Positions 1 to 10,381 of a stretch of 10,381 bases of DNA are shown in pieces. Numbering within the stretch: the stretch's first letter is position 1; each line of letters starts with the position of its first letter. Position numbers and translations under genes: made by a program. Below the pieces are notes generated by a model that was given only the letters and a program-made list of their open reading frames with translations, had not been told where the DNA came from and made no database searches. Origin of the DNA: a virus (lineage: Duplodnaviria > Heunggongvirae > Uroviricota > Caudoviricetes); the IMG/VR virus record IMGVR_UViG_2531839265_000011, positions 1 to 10,381 of that record. One strand, written 5' to 3'.

Positions 1-573
1 TTAGCAAATACCAAATGCTCGAATAGAACTCAAATCATCTAGGTTATTCAGTTCTTCCTTCATCTCCCGCTGACGCCGATAAATCTCATCGTTGCGATCG
101 ACCTGAGCCTGCGCCATTGCAGTAAGCAGCTCATCCAGTTTCTGCATCGACAGTTTCACCTGCTGGTTTTCCGCATCGCCCCATACCATGGTTTTTCGCG
201 CTGTGTCAGACTTTGATGCCATTACTGCCGGATAAAGACGAGCCATTGAGTCGGGGCCAGCGTTCCAGGTGCGACCGTTCCATTCGAACGTGAACGGCAG
301 TGCCTCCTGTTCTGTGCGCCATGCCTCGATTTCCCGCTTTTTGGCATCCTTCGCCGCGGCGATAAGTTCCGGCGTGACGGTGAACGGGGCGATTTCACCC
401 CATTTGCCGCTCTGCAACTCTTCCCAGATGCGTTGGCCTGTCGGGGCGGTATCATCTTGCATGGCGGTATACGGGACGAATTCCCTTTCACCTTCAAATA
501 ACACCTCGCAGTCAACCGCACCATTTTCGAGATAATGGGCGTTTCTGATGCCCTTTACCGCTCTGATTTTCAT
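1..573 (-). CDS. putative tail fibre assembly/chaperone-like protein paired with the second side tail fibre
   Basis: 190-aa ORF; ATG at 573-571 with AAGGAG 7 nt upstream; starts 14 nt after the TAA of the 654-aa fibre gene, the canonical position of a fibre chaperone; stop TAA at 3-1. Lacks the canonical Tfa C-terminal WP..P motif seen in the other Tfa (8518..9069), so the call is mainly positional. Confidence 0.5.
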   Translation of the reverse strand: MKIRAVKGIRNAHYLENGAVDCEVLFEGEREFVPYTAMQDDTAPTGQRIWEELQSGKWGEIAPFTVTPELIAAAKDAKKREIEAWRTEQEALPFTFEWNGRTWNAGPDSMARLYPAVMASKSDTARKTMVWGDAENQQVKLSMQKLDELLTAMAQAQVDRNDEIYRRQREMKEELNNLDDLSSIRAFGIC

Positions 574-587
574 GTTCTATCTCCTTG

Positions 588-2552
588 TTACTCAATGCGC
601 ACGAACAAACAGATAAAGCCTCTGTCGCCATACGTTCCACGATAACCTGACAGGGCCTGATAACGACCGGGAAAACTGAATGCACCAGCACCCCCCGCCT
701 TTACTGAAGGTGTGGAAACATATGTCCCGGAATTATTAATTGCACAGTCGATAGCCACAGGACCAAGTCGCGACCCCGCCACTACATCCCCAAGGCCAAT
801 TTTTATTTCCTTATCTCCTGCCGCTGTTCCCTGATAGACCGCGAGAATAAGAGAGCCAACTGCCGGATATTTGTAATATGAGGACGGGCCGTTGCCCGCC
901 GTCCGGGACAGCAGGAAGGCCAGCGAATCGCTGTCGTAAATGACGGGGCTTACTGTTGCATTCCAGTTATTTTCACTCCAGCGATAAGTCAGGCGATGAA
1001 TACTATGTTCGCCTTCGTAATACTGGTTAAAACACAGCAGCATTTTGAATTTGCGCGTTGTGTCTGATTCATCGTTATCAAAGGGCGACCACATCACATC
1101 AATAATGCCGTTAAATTTTGTGGTGCCAATCAGTAGCGAGGAAGAGTCCACAATACTGACCGCATAACGCCCCGGCGTGGCCTCTTTCAGCCATTCAGCA
1201 AAATCGGCCTGCCCGTTAAATGCCAGGGCTTCGGTGCTGGTAAATGCCTGACCGAATCCGTACATGCCGGACAGTGCCAGTCTGCCTGGTGTGCGGTCGC
1301 GGATATCGCTCTGGGGTTCCATCGTCGCAGCCGCTTTCAGTTCAAGCTCCGTGCGCATGGCCTCAGACGTGTCCAGCGCCAGTAATGCGCGGGCTTTTTC
1401 TGACAGCTGCGCCAGTAAAATCCGGCCCTCTGCACTGAAATAAGGCAGTGTGTTTTCTTCCGGTGTTATCTGGCTGACAGCCGTTAACACGTCATTAAGC
1501 GGCTGTTTACCTGCCAGTGCTTTAGTGACGGTTGTCGCAAAGTTCGGGTCATTACCCAGCGCCGCTGCCAGCTCGTTCAGCGTGTCGAGGGCTTCCGGTG
1601 ATGAGTCAACCAGCGCGGCGAGCAGTTTGCGGACAAATGCCGCGTTCGCGGTTTCCAGACCGACTGCATCGTCCGGTGGGGTTGGTGTGGTTGGCGTACC
1701 CGTGAACGCCGGGCTGTCCAGCGGCGCTTTTGTTTTCGTCTCGTCCATGACGGCTTTGACAGCCTTTGGTGTGGCGGCCAGTTCTTCGCTGTCGTTGTCT
1801 GTATCACTACAGAGTTGCACCAGGCCTTTTTGCGTCGTGCTGGCGCTGGTTCCTTTCAGGTCATCGACTATCCGTTGCGCCTCGTCCCTGTGCTGTTTCG
1901 CGTTCTGCTCGCTTTTTGCTGCTGCTTCGGCGCTGGCCTTTGCCTCGCCGGTCAGCGTTGCGGCTTCACCGAGTTTATCGACCGCTTTCTGGACTATCGT
2001 GTCAGCATCTTTGACCGCCTGTTCTGCGCGGGCCGCATCCTGTGTGGCAGATGACGCCAGTAACGCCACCTGCTTTTTGTCTTCGGCAACGGCTTCTGCG
2101 TTCTGCTGTACGTTATCCGCCAGCGTCTCGCAGTCGCTTTTAATTTGTTGCGCATCAGCGACATGTTTCCCGGCCTGTCGTTCGCTTTCCGCTGCCGCTT
2201 CCGCGCTCTGCTGCGCCTGCGCCACCATTTCCTCAAAGCGTTTCACTACATCCGGCTTTAAATCGCCTTCATCAAGGGCGGTCAGAAAGTCGTTCAGTGT
2301 GCCGGGCTTTGAATCGTCGTAAACCGAAATATCACCAACACAATATTCTCTTTCAATACATGACCGGAGATAAACGTCATATCTTCCGGTCTGGGCCTCA
2401 AATGCATATTCTCCTGCCGCCCCTGTCACTACTGTTGCCACCGTTCTCATGACCACTGCGGATGTATTCTGTCGGGCTTTCAGAATAATATGGTATCCGG
2501 ACATGGGGAGTCCCGTGCCATCCGTCAGCACACCCGAAATTAATACAGACAT
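588..2552 (-). CDS. side tail fibre protein, mosaic (Stf-type N-terminal domain, Ala-rich coiled coil, P2-H/Stf-type shaft motifs, distinct C-terminal domain)
   Basis: 654-aa ORF; ATG 2552-2550 with AGGA about 7 nt upstream. N-terminus MSVLISGVLTDGTG...ILKARQNTS...PGTLNDFL resembles the N-terminal domain of lambdoid prophage side tail fibres as I recall it; long Ala/Gln/Glu-rich coiled-coil region; central KGLVQL...ELAATPKAVKAVMDETKTKAPLDSPAFTGTPTTPTP...ALVDSSPEALDTLNELAAALGNDPNFATT block typical of P2 H / Stf fibres. Confidence 0.85.
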   Translation of the reverse strand: MSVLISGVLTDGTGLPMSGYHIILKARQNTSAVVMRTVATVVTGAAGEYAFEAQTGRYDVYLRSCIEREYCVGDISVYDDSKPGTLNDFLTALDEGDLKPDVVKRFEEMVAQAQQSAEAAAESERQAGKHVADAQQIKSDCETLADNVQQNAEAVAEDKKQVALLASSATQDAARAEQAVKDADTIVQKAVDKLGEAATLTGEAKASAEAAAKSEQNAKQHRDEAQRIVDDLKGTSASTTQKGLVQLCSDTDNDSEELAATPKAVKAVMDETKTKAPLDSPAFTGTPTTPTPPDDAVGLETANAAFVRKLLAALVDSSPEALDTLNELAAALGNDPNFATTVTKALAGKQPLNDVLTAVSQITPEENTLPYFSAEGRILLAQLSEKARALLALDTSEAMRTELELKAAATMEPQSDIRDRTPGRLALSGMYGFGQAFTSTEALAFNGQADFAEWLKEATPGRYAVSIVDSSSLLIGTTKFNGIIDVMWSPFDNDESDTTRKFKMLLCFNQYYEGEHSIHRLTYRWSENNWNATVSPVIYDSDSLAFLLSRTAGNGPSSYYKYPAVGSLILAVYQGTAAGDKEIKIGLGDVVAGSRLGPVAIDCAINNSGTYVSTPSVKAGGAGAFSFPGRYQALSGYRGTYGDRGFICLFVRIE

Positions 2553-2576
2553 TTTTATTTCCTGATTCAGAAAACA

Positions 2577-3665
2577 TTAACCAAAATAATTGACGCCTTT
2601 TTTCTTGCCACTGGCTTTCCCCTTTGCAGAAATATCCGTGGTCAGTGACAGATTCAGCGTAAATCCCTGTCCCGGTACCAGTGAAAACTCCACAGACTCA
2701 GCCTGCCAGTGATGGTCCTCACGCACACCAAATCCCTGCGTGACAAAACGCATCTCCGCCCCTGCTTTCAGCAGTTCCGGCCTGCAGGGCAACGTTATCG
2801 TCATCTGGCGTCCGGCTTTCTGCACACGTTTAACCTTCGACTCTGCACAGTGTTTTGCGGTGCCCTGGTCAGGCTGGGTAAACGGATGCCGCTTATCTGT
2901 TGACTCCACGTCAACTTTAACTTCACGTGTGCGTCCGTCACGGGCATCAAAATACCGGACCCCAACTTTCCCGCTCTTTTTATCCCCCTTCGCACCACCC
3001 GCAGCGCCCTGTCGCTCACCTTCACGATAATCCCAGTCTGATGCCATACCCGGCGTAATGGTTATCTCAGGCGCATTTCTGCCCCCCGTACTCTGTGATG
3101 CCCCGTATTCCAGAAATAACCAGTAGCCATTGGTCGGTTTACTGGTGGCGCCGTACATACCTGCAATGCGGGACAAGAGGGCAGCATCAGATTCTGATGA
3201 CTGCATCACCCACGGGATATGAATATCAGCAAGCACCGATGAGACGCGCGCCACCAGATTATTTTCAGTGGCGATGGTTTTCACCAGGTCGCCCAGTGTG
3301 ATATCGCTGAAAGCCCGGGTTTTCAGTGCGGTCACGTCTGCGCCATGTTTTGACGCATTCATGGGGGCTGCGGTGGCATAAATGGTGAGCCGGCGGGGAG
3401 GACCACCGCTTGCCACCTGACAGACGGTAAAACTGCCTTTATTGACCAGATTTCCGTTGAACCCCAGTCCCAGCGTTAGCACCGCGCCTTTCGGTGGCAA
3501 CGCCAGCGTCTCGCTGAACAGCGTTACCATCAGTTCATCGGACCGCTTTGTGCCAGCACCATTATCGGTATATCGCAACTCAGCCAGCCCACGTTTTATT
3601 GCCTTCGTGATATCCTGACCTTCCGCTGTCAGACTGAAATCCGGCTGATATTCATTCAGTCCCAT
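2577..3665 (-). CDS. gpD-like tail protein (P2 late control gene D family)
   Basis: 362-aa ORF; ATG 3665-3663 overlapping the end of the gpX-like gene by 10 nt; AAGGAG upstream; size, N-terminus (MGLNEYQPDFSLTAEGQDIT) and position at the end of the sheath-tube-chaperone-tape-measure-U-X block match gpD-type proteins of P2/phiCTX/R-pyocin clusters. Confidence 0.8.
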   Translation of the reverse strand: MGLNEYQPDFSLTAEGQDITKAIKRGLAELRYTDNGAGTKRSDELMVTLFSETLALPPKGAVLTLGLGFNGNLVNKGSFTVCQVASGGPPRRLTIYATAAPMNASKHGADVTALKTRAFSDITLGDLVKTIATENNLVARVSSVLADIHIPWVMQSSESDAALLSRIAGMYGATSKPTNGYWLFLEYGASQSTGGRNAPEITITPGMASDWDYREGERQGAAGGAKGDKKSGKVGVRYFDARDGRTREVKVDVESTDKRHPFTQPDQGTAKHCAESKVKRVQKAGRQMTITLPCRPELLKAGAEMRFVTQGFGVREDHHWQAESVEFSLVPGQGFTLNLSLTTDISAKGKASGKKKGVNYFG

Positions 3666-3874
3666 AACTGAAACGTCTCCTTCACTTCCGGTTCATATGT
3701 CCAGTCAGGCAACACGATTTCCACCCCGGCGGGATACACCGGACCAAAGTCAGCCAGCCCGGGATTGGCTTCCAGTACCGCCGCCAGTGACTGGTTAAGC
3801 CCGGTACTGCCATAGTGTCTCTGACAGATATCATCCAGCATATCGCCGTCAGTAGTCCGCCAGTTTTTCGCCAT
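3656..3874 (-). CDS. gpX-like small tail protein with LysM-like motif
   Basis: 72-aa ORF; ATG 3874-3872; sequence DMLDDICQRHYG...LAAVLEANPGLADFGPVYPAGVEIVLP has a LysM-like pattern; lies between the gpU-like and gpD-like genes as in phiCTX/R-pyocin-type tail clusters. Confidence 0.65.
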   Translation of the reverse strand: MAKNWRTTDGDMLDDICQRHYGSTGLNQSLAAVLEANPGLADFGPVYPAGVEIVLPDWTYEPEVKETFQLWD

Positions 3875-4343
3875 AGTATTTCAGCTCCAGTGTGAACGTT
3901 TTGTTCTTCGGCGCACCGCCGGGAAGAAAGGACGTGGTGTTATCTGAATAGGCGGTTGCCACGAAATACCCCATCACATCACCTGTGCTCGAGACCAGAA
4001 GATGCGGGGCCGGATTGTCATCCACCATCTGAACCAGTGTATCAAGGGCATCCATTCCCACACCGTCACGAAATCCCGCGTGCGCCATACCTTCAAGGGT
4101 TATTGTTCTGGCCCCCTTGCCGGTATACTGCAGCAGATCGTTTTTTCCGATAAGCTGTTGTTCATCCCATCGCCATTCCATCGTGCGCTTCATGGCGTTA
4201 TAAGCAGCAGTATCAATACTGAATTCAAACTCACCAAACGACAGCATGACGCGGGAGGCGACATCCGTTAATGATCCCACCGCGTCCCATGCTTCACGCT
4301 CAAGCCGGTTTACGCCCCAGCCCAGCAAATCCACCATATTCAC
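3849..4343 (-). CDS. gpU-like tail protein (tail terminator/tube-cap family)
   Basis: ORF-track frame 3849..4343, start as listed is GTG overlapping the tape-measure stop; a more plausible start is ATG 4337-4335 (GGGGGTG 3 nt upstream) or the internal ATG 4247-4245. Size and position immediately after the tape measure gene fit gpU. N-terminus uncertain. Confidence 0.6.
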   Translation of the reverse strand: MNMVDLLGWGVNRLEREAWDAVGSLTDVASRVMLSFGEFEFSIDTAAYNAMKRTMEWRWDEQQLIGKNDLLQYTGKGARTITLEGMAHAGFRDGVGMDALDTLVQMVDDNPAPHLLVSSTGDVMGYFVATAYSDNTTSFLPGGAPKNKTFTLELKYYGEKLADY

Positions 4344-5994
4344 CCCCAGAATGCATCGCCATCGGTCATGCGGGAACGCTGACCAAAATGAATATCTCCC
4401 AGATTTTTCGTTACCCTGTCAGCCAGTTGTCCGGCATCCTCGCCAGGCTTCTGAGTGATGTTAAATTCCGCCCGTATCTGATATGTGGGTTTTACTTCCA
4501 CCTGGCTGACACTGCCGGGGGTATACTGAAGAGCCGAGAGAGGATCCGAATTACCCTGCCCCTGAACTGCTGCAGGAAGTCCGTCAATATAGGTGCGGGA
4601 TTTCTCTTTTATCGCCTTAAAATCAGGTTCTTCTTTCGGCCCCAGCAGAGGGTCGAGAAATGCATCAAACTTTTTATCGTCATGATTCCAGGGGAGATAA
4701 CCGCGGGTGTCTTTATAGGCCTGTACAACCTGTTTTGTCAGGTCAGGATTTTGCCTGAGCAGTTCATCAAACCATTCACCCTGACCGTTTTTCTGCGCCA
4801 CTGCTCTCGCCAGCTCCGGCGACCCCATTTTTGCCAGATACTCCAGCACTTCCCGTCGGTCCTCTCGCGGATCATCCGCCAGCCCCCACTCAATGGCTTT
4901 TTGTGTAATTCCGGCAAGAACTTTTCCAAATTTCCACATCCAGGCAGCCATGTCGATCAGCGCCGGCAGGGCATCATCACGAATAAATGCCCGGATTTTT
5001 TTCCAGCCCACCATTCTTAAACCAGGCCGCAAGGTCATCCGTCACCTGTTGAATATGTGGGGCAAGTTCATTACCCAGCTGTCCGCTGATTTCATCAATG
5101 GAAGAACTCAGAACATTACGGAGATTTGACAGTGCCACATGTCCCTGAACTGCGCCATCAGCCCCTGCCTTTGTCACCAGGTTATAGCGTTTCTGCTCAC
5201 TGATAAGCTCCCGGTAAGTTTTCCCTGACAGACGCATCCAGGTCAGAATTTTATTGGCCTCACCACCGAACAACGCATCTGCCATTCCGGCAGCCACCTG
5301 TTCATTCTCCACCTGCAGTAAGCGATCAAATAAAAATTCGACCTGCTCCTGGTTGCTTTTCCCTGTCATCACCCCGGCTTTCAGTCCCAGTTTGCCAAAG
5401 ACCTCCTGAATGGCCCCTTTATCCGTGGCACCATTATCATCGTCAAAAACCTTGTTCCGGTACTCCTCAAACAGATCACCGATGTTTTCACCGTTCAGCC
5501 CCATCAGTCGGGCCAGAGAATCCCATGACGCATAGGTTTCATAATCCACCCCATAACTGCGGGCTATCCCTGCCCGCTCTGCCGTCTCCGTATTCCGGTT
5601 AAGCACAGCGGCAGTGCCCGCTGCCAGCGTCAACCCGGAACCAACCGAAAGCCCAAAACCGGTTTTAAGGACCGTCCCCGCCCGCCCTTTCCAGCGTTCC
5701 AGGCGTTCCGCGCGCGCCAGTTTACGGTTAAATTTGTCCTGCTCTCCGGTGGCATCATGAATTTTTTTACCCAGCTTTTCATACTGCTTTCGCAGATCAG
5801 TAATATCCTGTCCAGCCAGTACGCCAGCCTGAATTTTTCGTTTCAGTACGTCCTGCTGGCGTGTCAGGCGAGCCACTTCCTGTGTTGCCCCTGATAATCC
5901 GTGCTTCAGTCCATCAACCGATTTTTTTCCACGACGGATCTATCGTGCCTCCGATCCGGATATTCGCTTTAAGGTTATCGCCCACCGTTGCCAT
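4340..5994 (-). CDS. tail tape measure protein, reading frame interrupted twice at A7 runs (frameshifted gene or homopolymer sequencing error)
   Basis: Position directly after the E/E' chaperone; strong RBS (AGAGGAAG, 9-nt spacer) before ATG 5994-5992; three consecutive open segments (5994-5917, 5939-4980, 5041-4343) in different frames joined by single-nt shifts at A7 runs 5922-5928 and 4996-5002; Gly/Ala-rich hydrophobic stretch GFGLSVGSGLTLAAGTAAV typical of tape measure proteins; conceptual product about 548 aa. Confidence 0.6.
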
Positions 5995-6420
5995 AACGTT
6001 GCTTCCTCTCTTCCGACTCCGCCAGCATCATTGCCACAAAATCCGTATACGGCAGCGCCATCACATCTCCGGGAGACCACCCGAACCAGGCACCGGCACG
6101 CCGTATCGCTGTCAGGATGCTTTCTTCTTCCGCCGGACCGGCGGCAGCAAAAAAACATTAAACTGACGCTCCAGGGCCAGGTAATCACACGCTTCCATGT
6201 TCATCATGTCTGCCGCGTCCATCCCACACAGACCGGCAATCATATCCAGATCAGCCTCTGCTTCCGGTTTGTTACTCCGGCGATGCAACAGACGATCGCG
6301 GACAGTGGGCGCACGCATAGTGACGTGCGTGATCGTCTGTCCTGATGCGGTGACATACGGCACGGATAACACAATTTCCACGCTGCTGGCAGGAACGCTG
6401 TTTTTTTCCGACATAAGCAT
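5975..6420 (-). CDS. tail assembly chaperone E+E' fusion produced by programmed -1 ribosomal frameshift
   Basis: After a -1 slip at T_TTT_TTG (6154-6148) the -1 frame stays open for 57 codons (FFAAAGPAEEESILTAIRRAGAWFGWSPGDVMALPYTDFVAMMLAESEERKQRYGNGGR) to TAA 5977-5975, ending just inside the start of the tape measure gene; this is the standard E/E' (G/GT-type) arrangement. Confidence 0.6.
6112..6420 (-). CDS. tail assembly chaperone, gpE-like
   Basis: 102-aa ORF between tube and tape measure; AAGGAG at 6426-6421; first ATG at 6420-6418 is too close to the SD, so ATG 6414-6412 (6-nt spacer) is the likelier start; contains the T_TTT_TTG slippery heptamer 12 codons before its stop, as in P2 E. 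Confidence 0.75.
   Translation of the reverse strand: MLMSEKNSVPASSVEIVLSVPYVTASGQTITHVTMRAPTVRDRLLHRRSNKPEAEADLDMIAGLCGMDAADMMNMEACDYLALERQFNVFLLPPVRRKKKAS
6148..6154 (-). other. -1 programmed ribosomal frameshift slippery heptamer T_TTT_TTG
   Basis: Minus-strand sequence GTT TTT TTG in the E frame; heptamer X_XXY_YYZ with X=T, Y=T, Z=G, identical in form to the P2 E/E' site. Confidence 0.6.
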
Positions 6421-6427
6421 CTCCTTT

Positions 6428-6455
6428 AAAAAAGAAAAGGCGGCCTGAGCCGCCT
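6428..6455 (-). terminator. intrinsic (rho-independent) terminator between tube and chaperone E genes
   Basis: On the minus strand: AGGCGGC-TCAG-GCCGCCT (perfect 7-bp GC-rich stem, 4-nt loop; 6455-6438) followed by TTTCTTTTTT (6437-6428), then the RBS of E. Lies 19 nt after the tube stop. Confidence 0.6.
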
Positions 6456-6473
6456 GAATGACAGGATCCCGGA

Positions 6474-6968
6474 TTAAACCCGGATGATTTTTTTCAGATC
6501 CGCCAGAACATTAACGCCATTAATACGACGTACAAACTCCTCCGGAATAATGCAGATGGTTTCCACACCGTCGACAGCCTGGCGGTAATAACTCAGCGAC
6601 ATTTCCACCGTCACCGAGGCGTCTGCCTGCGATGTTGCCGGACGTGCATCCGGCGTGATACTGGTGATCATCCCCTGCAGGGTTTCCACCTGTCCGCTGG
6701 TCGCATTCCCCACCTGATAGCCCTGGCGGACAACAATCTCCGGCGAATAAAGCCCGGCCTGTAATCCCAGCAGCGTCAGCATGGCAACATCATAGCCATA
6801 AATCTTAAACGAACAGGTCAGCGCTTCCATGCCGTCATCCACTGCCACCGGTGCATCCATTGCGCCGGTTTTGATATCCACTGTCGTGATATTAATGGCT
6901 GGCGGCGTGTATTCATGCGCCCCCTGAAGGCGGATCCCGCCAGGAAGAAATAACGCCCATGCGCGCAA
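6474..6968 (-). CDS. tail tube protein (FII-like)
   Basis: 164-aa ORF directly after the sheath gene; C-terminal MSLSYYRQAVDGVETICIIPEEFVRRINGVNVLADL resembles the conserved C-terminal region of P2-type tube proteins as I recall them. The in-frame ORF has no ATG (only TTG at 6968-6966); a strongly RBS-backed ATG at 6991-6989 lies in another frame (see findings). Confidence 0.75.
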   Translation of the reverse strand: MRAWALFLPGGIRLQGAHEYTPPAINITTVDIKTGAMDAPVAVDDGMEALTCSFKIYGYDVAMLTLLGLQAGLYSPEIVVRQGYQVGNATSGQVETLQGMITSITPDARPATSQADASVTVEMSLSYYRQAVDGVETICIIPEEFVRRINGVNVLADLKKIIRV

Positions 6969-6987
6969 CAGTTTTTTTCACCCGTCA

Positions 6988-8463
6988 TCATACTGTCAGT
7001 TCCTCCAGCGCCAGTTTATTGTTAATCATTGCCCGCAGTGTCAGGCGCTCCAGTGGTGACTTCGGCCCAAAGTCATAATCAATATACAACTGCCCTGCCG
7101 CCAGGGTTTCTGCAGTGTTCAGTTCATCGTTCAGCCATGCACTGCCACCGTGGATCGCGCCCAGATTTTTAAGCTGACGCATATAGGCATTAATGCTGCC
7201 AAGAATGTCGTCTGCCACATCCCGATCAAGCGGGCGATCGACATAAGGCAGCATGGCCTCCTGGATGCTGTCCTCAATCACATCTGCAGTGCGGCGTACC
7301 GGCTCAAAACGCCACTGACTGTGGGATGTGCACAGACGGTTACCCCAGTGTTTAAAACCGTCATGGCGAATAATGGTGGAGATATTTTCCATGTTCAGCA
7401 GGTTTGCCGTGCAGTTCTGCTCCCCGAGAATAAACGTATCCACCTGCTCCAGACCGGTGATATTCATCACGTCCTGGTTTGATTTGGACCACCACCACCC
7501 TTTTTCGTAATCAATACGGGCACGCAGCCCGGCAGCACGAGCCGAATATGGACGAAATATCGTTTGCCCGCTGTCATCCGTCACTGACACGCGCGGACGC
7601 AGCAGCTCCACACGCCCACCAAATGACGCGCGCCGCTGAACCACATCCTGCGGTGTTGCCATTGAGGGCGAGTCAATATAGGCCACAGCCCGCAGCTTCG
7701 CGGCATACGTTTCCAGCGCCTTTGCCACGCCATCATCCTCACTGTACCCCGTGGCGATGAGGATGCGCGGTTGATAGCCTGTCACGCCCTTACTTTCTGT
7801 CAGCGCCTCCATGGCCTGAATCACCGCCGCACGCTGTTCGGCCTCTTTCGCCTTTGTTTTACTTTCTGCGCGCACCACAATCACCAGCGCCCCAGTCTGG
7901 TCAAAAATATCTCGCAGGGCCGGGTATAATGTTCCGGCTGTGCCCAGTTTCCCGGCCTGAGTAATGGCCCCTGCCACCACCACTGGTGTATTGACCGGGA
8001 ACGCCTCATCTTCTCCGCCGGATAACGTCAGGCTGAACGGCAACACCACTTTATTTTCAGCGTCTCCTGCATTCAGGGTGCTGACAGCCGCCGTCACAGG
8101 CGAATCCCCCAGCGCATTCACCACTTCAGTCACACGGTCCGCCGTGGCGTTAACCTGGCTGTGTTCGTCCGTCCCCAGTGTTATCGTCAGGGTCGTACCT
8201 TTCAGCGAGGCCACTGTCTGCGCATTTTGTTCTGTGGCAGCCACAGCAACAACCGAAATCTTATTACCGGCCCGACCTTCCTGTTTCGCCGTGAAATCCA
8301 GCGCCGTTCCCAGCAGCCAGGAGCCGGCTGTGCCGGAAGCGCACACACCACCAGAGGCGTCCGGCGCTGTCCCCACCAGGCCAATCACTGCCGTGGAGAT
8401 GGTCTGCACGGCAACCGTGCCTGTCGTCAGTTCAATGGTTTCAACACCATGTAATCCGGACAT
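6988..8463 (-). CDS. tail sheath protein (FI-like)
   Basis: 491-aa ORF; ATG 8463-8461 with GGGAGA 5 nt upstream; N-terminus MSGLHGVETIELTTGTVAVQTISTAVIGLVGTAPDA, central PRILIATGYSEDDGVAKALETYAAKLRAVAYI, GWWWSKSNQ, IRHDGFKHWGNR and C-terminal AETLAAGQLYIDYDFGPKSPLERLTLRAMI blocks match the conserved segments of P2 FI-type sheath proteins from memory. Confidence 0.9.
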   Translation of the reverse strand: MSGLHGVETIELTTGTVAVQTISTAVIGLVGTAPDASGGVCASGTAGSWLLGTALDFTAKQEGRAGNKISVVAVAATEQNAQTVASLKGTTLTITLGTDEHSQVNATADRVTEVVNALGDSPVTAAVSTLNAGDAENKVVLPFSLTLSGGEDEAFPVNTPVVVAGAITQAGKLGTAGTLYPALRDIFDQTGALVIVVRAESKTKAKEAEQRAAVIQAMEALTESKGVTGYQPRILIATGYSEDDGVAKALETYAAKLRAVAYIDSPSMATPQDVVQRRASFGGRVELLRPRVSVTDDSGQTIFRPYSARAAGLRARIDYEKGWWWSKSNQDVMNITGLEQVDTFILGEQNCTANLLNMENISTIIRHDGFKHWGNRLCTSHSQWRFEPVRRTADVIEDSIQEAMLPYVDRPLDRDVADDILGSINAYMRQLKNLGAIHGGSAWLNDELNTAETLAAGQLYIDYDFGPKSPLERLTLRAMINNKLALEELTV

Positions 8464-8476
8464 ACATTTCTCCCAT

Positions 8477-8498
8477 AAAAAAACCGCCCTCAGGCGGT
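8477..8498 (-). terminator. intrinsic (rho-independent) terminator between Tfa and sheath genes
   Basis: On the minus strand: ACCGCC-TGAG-GGCGGT (6-bp stem, 4-nt loop; 8498-8483) followed by TTTTTT (8482-8477); 20 nt after the Tfa stop and 13 nt before the sheath ATG. Confidence 0.65.
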
Positions 8499-8517
8499 CA
8501 GATGATTAACTTCTTTT

Positions 8518-9069
8518 TCAGGTATTTTGTGGCTGCTCAGGCCAGCTAATATTGTTGTATGTGGTCTTATCCGTAATAGCGCTGAAATCCATCGCCTGCA
8601 GCGATTTCGCGTAAATGCGGTACGCTTTCAGCTTCTCCCTGTCTTCGTCACTGATTAATCCCGGCAGCAGGTCTTTTTCCCATTCGCTGGTCATGATGCT
8701 GACCTGTTTTAACAGAGCATCGCGCTCATCTTCCGCTTTAAGTTTGTAGTCGAAGACAAATTTATCGTCGCGGTAAAACCAGTAACCAGGCACGGTTATA
8801 CGGCGATTAGCGGTAATATCAGGAACTTCAATAACACTGGCGTTACGGGGTTCAATGCCTGTCACATCCTTACCGACCCACACCACGCGCCCGTCTCCGG
8901 TGTAAACCATTTTTATGGTGTCACTGGCAAAATTCTTCTGTTCTTCATACCAGTTTTTGTCATCTTCCGAAAAAAGCCAGGTGATACCATGTTGTTTTGT
9001 CATCTGATATTGTTCTGCGGTTTTCGGATTGCCCGCAGTAATATTTTTAAATGCAACATTGTTAAACAC
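8518..9069 (-). CDS. tail fibre assembly protein (Tfa, gpG-like)
   Basis: 183-aa ORF starting (GTG 9069-9067) 8 nt inside the end of the upstream fibre gene; C-terminus ...TTYNNISWPEQPQNT carries the W-P-x-x-P ending characteristic of Tfa chaperones; position immediately downstream of a fibre gene. Confidence 0.8.
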   Translation of the reverse strand: MFNNVAFKNITAGNPKTAEQYQMTKQHGITWLFSEDDKNWYEEQKNFASDTIKMVYTGDGRVVWVGKDVTGIEPRNASVIEVPDITANRRITVPGYWFYRDDKFVFDYKLKAEDERDALLKQVSIMTSEWEKDLLPGLISDEDREKLKAYRIYAKSLQAMDFSAITDKTTYNNISWPEQPQNT

Positions 9070-10381
9070 TCGCCACGTTATACCAGGTGCCGTTAATCAG
9101 TTTCTGAAGCGGACGGTAATACACGCCGCCGATGTTATCTGCCGAATTACTTCCGGTTTCCTGCACATTAATACCGGATAACCCGTGGCCTGAAGGTGAG
9201 CGAAATGTCCAGGATACCTGGTTACCTCCCGGGTTGTAATACATTTCGGAACCATAACGCACATCCTGTACGCCGCCATTTCGCTGCTGATAACGGGCAT
9301 CGAAATTTCCATAGTTTGATGGGGTCATCTGTCCGTTTACAGCGAATGTGATACTGCCATCGGTATTTCTCTGGCTGTAAAAATGCCAGCCGGAATCATC
9401 ACCAAGCTCTGCAACTACAGGTCGGGATGAATTACCCCATAAATTAAACGTTGCGTTTTTCGTCGAGTTGTTGGCGCTGGATAACGTGAATTTTTTAGCA
9501 TTTCCGGCCTGAATATTTTTTAACGCTATCGCCACACCATTCTGGAAACGAAATACATGCTGTCCATTCGCATAAACATCCAGAATGCCGTCGCCGTTTT
9601 GTTTTATACCTGTATCGTTATCCCCGAAAGCAATTGAGTTTCCGCCCAGCGCGTTCTGAACGCCGATACCCAGCGCACCATTGACCTGAGAACCGCCGCC
9701 AACAGACACTTTATGCGACATAGATATTTCACCCGTCCGCAGATTAATAGTGAACGGGCGAAGTGGACCAATATCGCCATTTTCACCTTGGTTTTCCTGT
9801 GTTGGAATAAGGTGCAGGCACTCTTCCGAACGACGAAAAATCAGCCCAAAGGCTTCGTTGAAAATCCTCAGCGCATTAACACCACGGATTTTCAGTTCCC
9901 CGGTCATGGTGTCACCATCACGCTGAACGGCATTTTTTGCCTTGTCCACCGTGGGTTTTAATCCGAGGTTTTCAACAGCCTCATCCTTGTCTTCCACATC
10001 CGAAAGATTCTTTTTTCGTTGCAGATAGCGTCTGTCTCCGATTTCCTGAGTAATAATGGCCCTGTCCGGATCAACTTCCAGCACCACGTTTTGTGCGTGC
10101 GTCAGCCCAAGAACCAGCGTCAGAATAACTTCCTTGATAACGGAGTCCGTCTGGTCTGGTAAAAAGGTGTCGGGATAACGTCCGTACGCGATAAGCGTAC
10201 CTCTGTCGCTGATCATCCCCAGTTCACGAAGGGTTTTACCGGGGTATGATTTACAGTCAATCACAATATCCCCGCTGATGAAGCCCTCCTCCACCGCACC
10301 GTCGGAAAAGGGTTCCTGCCCGAATTCGCCGTACAACGATGTCATTGCTGCCATTTCATCCGGCGTGGATGGCAATGCCCG
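9062..10381 (-). CDS. tail fibre protein, P2 gpH-like (5' end truncated by window edge)
   Basis: Open to the window edge (no stop between 10375 and 10381; the listed M is a TTG, so the true start is probably upstream). N-terminal region (TLRELGMISDRGTLIAYG...) resembles the P2 H baseplate-attachment region; DGDTMTGEL collar motif; C-terminal region (NALGGNSIAFGDNDTGIKQNGDGILDVYANGQHVFRFQNGVAIALKNIQAG...VVAELGDDSGWHFYSQRNTDGSITFAVNGQM...LINGTWYNVASV) matches the conserved distal domain shared by P2 H / Mu S-type fibres as I recall them. Confidence 0.85.
   Translation of the reverse strand, partial: RALPSTPDEMAAMTSLYGEFGQEPFSDGAVEEGFISGDIVIDCKSYPGKTLRELGMISDRGTLIAYGRYPDTFLPDQTDSVIKEVILTLVLGLTHAQNVVLEVDPDRAIITQEIGDRRYLQRKKNLSDVEDKDEAVENLGLKPTVDKAKNAVQRDGDTMTGELKIRGVNALRIFNEAFGLIFRRSEECLHLIPTQENQGENGDIGPLRPFTINLRTGEISMSHKVSVGGGSQVNGALGIGVQNALGGNSIAFGDNDTGIKQNGDGILDVYANGQHVFRFQNGVAIALKNIQAGNAKKFTLSSANNSTKNATFNLWGNSSRPVVAELGDDSGWHFYSQRNTDGSITFAVNGQMTPSNYGNFDARYQQRNGGVQDVRYGSEMYYNPGGNQVSWTFRSPSGHGLSGINVQETGSNSADNIGGVYYRPLQKLINGTWYNVASV

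Follow-up and report, generated by a model that had tools for sequence, protein, structure and literature searches.

Internal terminators that are overridden by Q are part of the established biology of lambdoid phages, and the P2-like phages are known for late transcription that is controlled by activators. Hairpins are also found between cistrons as 3' stabilisers of the message, as in the malE-malF REP and the puf operon; these have no U-tract and are not terminators. The late operons of lambdoid phages are turned on by Q antitermination (PMC2629481; PMC7547250). Termination within a structural module has been mapped in the Listeria phage CKA15, where ONT-cappable-seq identified intrinsic termination sites after the tail-tube gene (PMC12282133).

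The locus described here is a hairpin and T-tract that lies between the gene for the tail tube and that for a tail assembly chaperone, within 10,381 nt of viral DNA (IMG/VR record IMGVR_UViG_2531839265_000011, positions 1 to 10,381), a stretch that we refer to as the window. It resembles the late-operon terminators of lambdoid phages (lambda, 82, 21 and the Stx phages) in that the hairpin and U-tract are co-directional with a long late unit, and in its complete relatives Q is found upstream, with terminator-like sites directly past Q and others flanking stx2e and the lysis genes. It differs from them in lying deep within a P2-type contractile-tail module and not near pR', in being one of a conserved pair around the sheath and tube genes, and in that read-through under Q would here be expected by analogy. 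With the stabiliser hairpins the locus shares a stable stem immediately 3' of a cistron that is needed in excess, a stabilising effect in the window being a prediction from that structure. The likeness to CKA15 is in having an intrinsic terminator directly past the tail tube gene in the structural module (PMC12282133); CKA15 is, however, an unrelated virulent phage of a Gram-positive host, and its next unit begins from a mapped transcription start site of its own, whereas the junction in the window has no room for a promoter.

Gene content and phage background of the window

All of the long ORFs in the window are on the minus strand. They encode a tail-fibre assembly protein (8518-9069, identified by Pfam), the tail sheath (6988-8463; Pfam Phage_sheath_1 and Phage_sheath_1C), a tail tube of the Phage_tube FII family (6474-6991; PF04985, E = 1.9e-23 on an intact relative), a gpE-like tail assembly chaperone (6112-6414; PF10109 (TAC_7), E = 2.1e-12), the tape measure (4340-5994; from the ORF list, and intact at 550 aa in relatives), a gpU-like protein (3849-4343; Pfam GpU), tail protein X (3656-3874; Pfam Phage_tail_X) and a gpD-like protein (2577-3665) for which the match to Pfam GPD is weak and below its cut-off; for these last three the way in which relatives are annotated is further evidence.

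Two of these genes are interrupted. Alignment shows that the tube reading frame is broken at codon 7, where the window has seven A residues and two relatives have eight (6972-6978), and the tape measure is split into ORFs at 4977-5876 and 4340-5038 by two 1-nt homopolymer insertions, at about 5916-5922 and 4990-4996, where the plus strand has T7 compared with T6 in the prophage L069. These three homopolymer frameshifts may reflect either a defective or decaying prophage or homopolymer errors in the assembly. The end of the chaperone gene carries a P2-type slippery heptamer, T-TTT-TTG (6148-6154, minus strand), and the -1 frame remains open for ~55 further codons, to about 5975 beside the tape-measure start, as expected for a programmed frameshift of the gpE/E' type; in the annotation of another relative, L162, this extension is a separate 45-aa ORF.

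The initial annotation had placed this module within the framework of P2, a framework that does not hold for the phage as a whole. The tube protein is 22% identical to P2 FII, its best phage match is to that of Citrobacter phage Chris1 at 48%, and a megablast search with the window DNA against 50,697 phage records returned no match. The region is present in 74 of 5,426 complete E. coli genomes at 80-99% identity, and the complete relatives are lambdoid phages that carry Q. The prophage L069, found at ompW in E. coli STEC276, has a tail module that is 97.5% identical to that of the window and is Stx2e-converting. Its early part comprises an integrase, a lambdoid early region, RusA, a Q antiterminator, tRNAs, stx2e, lysis genes and the terminase, its head is of the lambda type (portal, S49 protease, decoration protein, major capsid and FI) and is followed by the contractile tail, and all genes from Q onward are on one strand, with the late genes running from 31 kb to 3.2 kb. 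The stxA/stxB2e genes and three tRNA genes of L069, which are located between Q and the lysis genes, each have terminator-like hairpins on either side (the stx2e, tRNA and Q stretch is at 28020-29255, 29346-29599 and 31274-32095). Positions 1-2100 and 8833-9536 of the window do not align to L069, the remainder being 95-97% identical, and these unaligned stretches correspond to the distal 654-aa ORF (588-2552) and to the boundary of the tail-fibre and assembly genes, a pattern which indicates probable mosaic exchange of receptor-binding parts.

The second prophage, L162 of strain Sx181-0-1, shares this late module and occupies a different attachment site, with another Q and without stx; it is integrated near prfC and yjjG and has a Dsr1 sirtuin anti-phage defence gene beside its integrase (40662-44489). 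A further E. coli genome, STEC316, has a complete Mu-like prophage (L068 252-24228) that adjoins the lysis region of a lambdoid prophage and appears to be inserted into it. Citrobacter phage Chris1, despite a tube that is just 48% identical, is also lambdoid.

Q-like antiterminators were found in all three of the complete relatives (PF03589 in L069, E = 1.9e-52; phrog_79 in L162, E = 1.6e-44; phrog_753 in Chris1, E = 5e-60). The three Q proteins belong to a different family in each case, and each is encoded in the standard position with the late genes on one strand; in L069 terminator-like sites at 31240 and 31193 lie just past Q with the late genes co-directional behind them. The window does not include the Q region, and its own genes are likely to be under Q control by extension from relatives that are 95-99% identical to it across the tube junction.

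A predicted terminator between the tube and chaperone genes

The element was characterised from the sequence itself, a consensus scan and RNA folding. Read along the minus, or coding, strand it is a stem-loop, AGGCGGC-TCAG-GCCGCCT (6455-6438), which is abutted by the T-tract TTTCTTTTTT (6437-6428), in which 9 of the 10 bases are T, including 7 of the first 8 positions past the stem. The interval 6428-6455 that had originally been proposed as a terminator is therefore exactly the hairpin and its T-tract, and the orientation agrees with that of transcription. The earlier description of a perfect 7-bp GC stem with a tetraloop is right as to the seven base pairs, the 4-nt loop and the T-tract, and slightly overstated as to composition, as six of the pairs are G-C and the closing pair is A-U.

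The position between the tube stop and the chaperone ribosome-binding site was likewise borne out. The tube stop codon, TAA at 6476-6474, is followed by an 18-nt spacer (6473-6456) and then by the hairpin; beyond the T-tract there are just three bases, AAA, before the Shine-Dalgarno sequence GGAG at 6424-6421. The six bases ATGCTT separate GGAG from the chaperone start codon, ATG at 6414-6412, which matches the 303-nt CDS annotated in relatives, and an alternative ATG at 6420 abuts the Shine-Dalgarno sequence.

The consensus scan ranked this hairpin as the best terminator-like site on the minus strand of the window. The 35-nt junction RNA folds at -14.3 kcal/mol, as compared with -5.1 +/- 1.9 for shuffled sequences (z = -4.9), none of the 200 shuffles being as good. 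The sequence features by which an intrinsic terminator is recognised are all present: a G+C-rich stem and a loop within the usual range (about 5-14 bp and 3-8 nt), an adjoining U-tract, co-direction with transcription and a location after a stop codon. By its anatomy the element is a genuine Rho-independent terminator, and it would be expected to bring about termination.

Other roles for the sequence were considered and rejected. The plus strand has no T-run past the hairpin, which rules out a bidirectional terminator, and a dispersed repeat is ruled out because the stem sequence is found once in the window. A scan of the whole window against Rfam at gathering thresholds found no family. Sequestration of the Shine-Dalgarno sequence by the U-tract is weak in the minimum free energy fold of 96 nt, and would be impossible in the distant subfamily, where the tail is TTTTTATTGGAG. 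A small RNA derived from the 3' end of the tube message is unlikely, as no part of the junction varies more than the region 5' of the stem. No promoter-like site was predicted on the minus strand near the hairpin, for which the 3-nt gap would leave no room; the size of the gap and the absence of such a prediction together rule out a promoter between the hairpin and the chaperone gene.

There is also an antisense hairpin within the tube CDS, on the plus strand at 6847-6869, with a 9-bp stem, ACCGGTGCA-TCCAT-TGCGCCGGT, that is followed by TTTGATAT. It is found in L069 as well (9530-9552) and may be due to chance or be a stop for antisense transcription.

Conservation of the junction

Homologues of the tube were gathered from IMG/VR (60 loci), from genome contigs (5 loci) and from annotated records; the scan of genome contigs with the tube protein supplied the 5 distant loci only, with the close relatives coming from IMG/VR and E. 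coli genomes. They split into a close group with 90-100% tube identity and a distant group with 43-48%. All 66 of the loci that extend to the junction carry there a GC-rich hairpin, its loop 4 nt long, with a T-tract after it, and these loci represent 41 distinct junctions in two subfamilies, down to 43% tube identity. Conservation of the hairpin in related prophages, which the initial annotation had named as a check on its proposal, is thus complete in this sample.

The number of T residues in the first 8 bases past the stem is between 6 and 8 across the 66 loci. In L066, where the automated scan had chosen another stem, the T-tract was read directly from the sequence, and the hairpin of this locus has a single A-C mismatch. 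The Shine-Dalgarno sequence comes directly after the T-tract, and in 65 loci out of 66 the end of the hairpin and the ATG are separated by 16-24 nt. The exception is L034, an IMG/VR contig from a close relative, where the distance is 66 nt in an enlarged junction of 104 nt that has a second hairpin. The first hairpin of L034 is GGCGGC-CTGT-GCCGCT followed by TTTTTATTTT, and the second is AACGTCCG-GTAA-CGGACGTT followed by TTTAC.

Different groups of relatives have their own stems (AGGCGGC/GCCGCCT, AGCGGCC/GGCCGCT and ACGGCC/GGCCGT). In an alignment of 20 sequences 95.7% of the cells are paired, with compensatory two-sided changes at 3 of the 7 pairs, one of which is within the close group, where G-C has become A-U in L013. 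The covariation score was reached by none of 500 shuffles, and control registers, in which the alignment was slid, pair at 24-80%. Among the 21 haplotypes of the close group 15 of the 19 alignment columns of the spacer between the tube stop and the hairpin (6456-6473) are variable, so that this spacer is unconserved, as against 1 of 7 and 2 of 7 in the stem, where changes are compensated. On this pattern of substitution the hairpin is under purifying selection, because the stem is far less variable than the spacer that adjoins it and the changes that it does have are compensated.

It might be supposed that the hairpin is a chance palindrome or a relic, for example what is left of an ancestral operon boundary of the P2-type tail module. 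P2 does have such a boundary, a terminator together with the PF promoter, upstream of FI, and at least the hairpin nearest to the sheath gene (see below) could descend from one. A relic would nevertheless not be expected to be retained in all 66 loci across so deep a divergence, nor to have compensatory substitutions in its stem beside a spacer that varies freely, nor to fold better than each of the 200 shuffles; we regard this explanation as highly improbable, and a chance origin is ruled out by the presence of both hairpin and T-tract throughout the related loci.

Predicted terminators across the late unit

A second element of the same kind lies upstream of the sheath gene. This partner (minus strand, 8476-8499; identified by sequence, scan and fold) consists of the stem-loop GACCGCC-TGAG-GGCGGTT (8499-8482) and a T-run, with seven T residues at 8483-8477 and an A at 8476, after which come GGGAG and the sheath ATG at 8463. 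It starts 18 nt past the stop codon of the fibre-assembly gene (8518-8520) and is directly before the sheath ribosome-binding site, so that the 54-nt gap before the sheath gene is taken up by the terminator and that site. A hairpin and T7 are found here in every relative that reaches the junction, even where the upstream gene differs, with the exception of L023, in which the recovered sequence upstream of the sheath shows no hairpin. The stems of this second element also covary (CCGCC/GGCGG, CCCGC/GCGGG and CCTGC/GCAGG). The sheath and tube genes are thus bracketed by a conserved pair of what are, by their sequence features, terminators.

Such elements are not confined to the two ends of the sheath-tube segment. 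A stringent terminator scan over the 28.2-kb late unit of L069 found 13 terminator-like sites on the sense strand as against one on the antisense strand; of these 13, 9 lie wholly between genes and a tenth overlaps the end of a CDS, although the non-coding share of the unit is just 8.6%. The sites are found past Q, around both stx2e and the lysis genes, on either side of the major capsid gene, ahead of the sheath gene and past the tube gene. Three of these places, namely past the capsid gene, ahead of the sheath gene and past the tube gene, hold terminator sites in the distant Chris1 too. An internal terminator at this place had been thought noteworthy in itself; with about ten intergenic terminators on the sense strand of the late unit, internal terminators are the rule and not the exception.

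The initial annotation had offered a stoichiometric explanation, in which partial termination after the tube gene would be the main reason that the phage makes more sheath and tube than chaperone, tape measure, U, X and D. The anatomy of the element and the selection upon it accord with this proposal: the hairpin is directly 3' of a gene for a protein needed in very high copy, hairpin and U-tract are both conserved, L069 and Chris1 have a terminator of a similar kind past the major capsid gene, and the termination sites mapped after the tail-tube gene of Listeria phage CKA15 (PMC12282133) provide a precedent. What does not accord with it is the terminator upstream of the sheath gene, equally canonical and conserved, which as an attenuator would, contrary to the proposal, lower the amounts of sheath and tube relative to the baseplate and fibre genes. 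Furthermore, the last genes of the unit need to be expressed, yet there are about ten terminators in series, and the Q-like antiterminators of the three complete relatives should largely suppress termination that depends on hairpins. Nor does the hairpin look leaky; at -14.3 kcal/mol it appears strong, when compared with -11.2 for a tR'-like site of the same phage family. We therefore consider it unlikely that partial termination is the main source of the excess. Any step in dosage at this junction is probably modest, because Q antitermination is expected to suppress termination, and RNA stability may contribute to it as much as termination does.

Comparison with P2-like phages

The record for P2 annotates one F-operon transcript, running from FI as far as D, and one terminator only, past ogr, which agrees with the statement in the initial annotation that P2 transcribes FI through D as one unit. 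The likeness of the window to the P2 F operon is considerable: the gene order of sheath, tube, E/E', T, U and D, the Pfam families, the slippery site T-TTT-TTG and a GC-rich hairpin in a tube-chaperone gap of ~55 nt are common to both. P2 differs in having an activator-dependent promoter before FI, whereas the corresponding gap before the sheath gene of the window holds a terminator instead. The phage of the window also differs from P2 in its extra X gene and, if the relatives are a guide, in its lambda-type head and Q control; head, lysis and regulatory genes of the P2 type were not encountered, the relatives having a lambda-type head and control by Q.

In P2 there is a stem-loop 12 nt past the FII stop, CCGGTCAGC-CTG-GCTGGCCGG (L067 385-402; -15.9 kcal/mol). 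It is followed by TTAACCC and so has no U-tract, and the terminator scan did not report it. A scan of viral contigs with P2 FII yielded near-identical copies of P2 only, and ten phage records were sampled across the identity range of the P2 FII homologues, the comparison within the Peduoviridae being of nine genomes including P2. A stable GC-rich hairpin is present in a tube-E gap of 52-67 nt in eight of these nine (P2, L152 and L154-L159), and none of the nine has 6 or more T residues in the 8 bases past the stem. The exception to the presence of a hairpin is Yersinia phage 42.18, in which the tube-E gap is just 14 nt. Two of the sampled records show other arrangements: in Vibrio phage MAR a small ORF comes next to the tube gene on its 3' side and is itself followed by a canonical terminator, and in Escherichia phage ECOO78 the hairpin is followed by ATTTTCAA. 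It looks from these comparisons as though a hairpin after the tube gene is a general feature of the P2-type tail module, with the full terminator form in the Q-controlled lineage. The contrast with P2 fits the idea that the hairpin is useful in itself and that a full terminator is tolerated only where antitermination exists.

The same contrast could be taken to mean that termination is irrelevant in vivo, and that the element acts after transcription, as a stabiliser or processing boundary of the mRNA, with the U-run serving as an A/U-rich translational enhancer for the chaperone. Since a stable GC-rich hairpin (with the junction folding at -16 to -20 kcal/mol) is kept without a usable U-tract in eight of the nine P2-like phages sampled, it is the hairpin and not the terminator that contractile-tail modules have in common, and in the window's own family the U-tract runs directly into the Shine-Dalgarno sequence at a fixed distance. 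Against this, 6-8 T residues in the first 8 bases past the stem of 66 out of 66 loci are a signature specific to termination as opposed to stability, one that is repeated upstream of the sheath gene and at other sites in the late unit, and the bias of 13 to 1 towards the sense strand among complete terminators is as expected of transcriptional signals. If the element were a stabiliser alone, conservation of the U-tract would be needless. A role restricted to events after transcription is in our view quite unlikely.

Proposed late transcription under Q

The reading that we prefer, to which we would give a probability of roughly 0.45, is that the element is a conditional terminator, one of the conserved pair and of about ten in a late unit controlled by Q, which would be read through during late transcription and whose stem would then stabilise the message. 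The 3-nt gap between the T-tract and the Shine-Dalgarno sequence, together with the absence of a predicted promoter, means that the genes from the chaperone to the fibres would be transcribed only through this terminator and the nine or so that come before it. So many terminators in series are workable only with processive antitermination, which these phages encode. Read-through under Q would be required because the essential genes past the terminator, from the chaperone, tape measure, U, X and D to the distal fibres, lack a separate promoter, and for the tube-chaperone site in particular we infer it because there is no promoter between the hairpin and the chaperone gene.

Under this conditional scheme the hairpin and U-tract would release any RNA polymerase that had not been modified by Q at the late promoter. 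In a lysogen, or where transcription starts spuriously at an internal site, the genes from the chaperone to the distal fibres would stay silent, and during lytic growth polymerase modified by Q would pass the terminator. The read-through transcript would keep the stable stem, which is most likely to act as a barrier to 3'-to-5' exonucleases. This barrier, and such termination as escapes Q, may together make the sheath-tube segment more abundant than the segment for the chaperone and tape measure, with the residual termination adding a modest step-down in downstream RNA. A role as a fail-safe only would leave unexplained why the element has a fixed place after the tube gene and not in any other gap.

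Significance

Terminators overridden by Q and termination after a tail-tube gene are both known, and the locus does not open a new class of mechanism. What is mildly new is limited to two points, the pair of terminators around the sheath and tube genes and the contrast in hairpin anatomy with the Peduoviridae.

One way of bringing these two points together is to suppose that the hairpin after the tube gene is an ancient cis-element of P2-type contractile-tail modules, which governs, at the level of RNA, how much sheath and tube is made relative to chaperone and tape measure, and whose anatomy has co-evolved with the strategy of transcription. We offer this tentatively and think it somewhat doubtful. 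Were it true, the element would be a bare stabiliser stem in the activator-driven Peduoviridae, and with Q it would be a full terminator with a second upstream of the sheath gene, giving an insulated sheath-tube segment of RNA.

For the relatives of this phage, Stx2e-converting prophages among them, conserved intrinsic terminators throughout the late unit are an aid to annotation. They also call for caution, in that predictions of terminators inside lambdoid late operons are not to be taken as the ends of operons. Given the number of terminators, the late genes, with stx2e among them in L069, would need read-through mediated by Q in order to be expressed. Finally, the full terminator of the Q phages and the hairpin without a U-tract of the P2-like phages provide a way to ask whether it is termination or RNA stability that sets the ratios of structural proteins.
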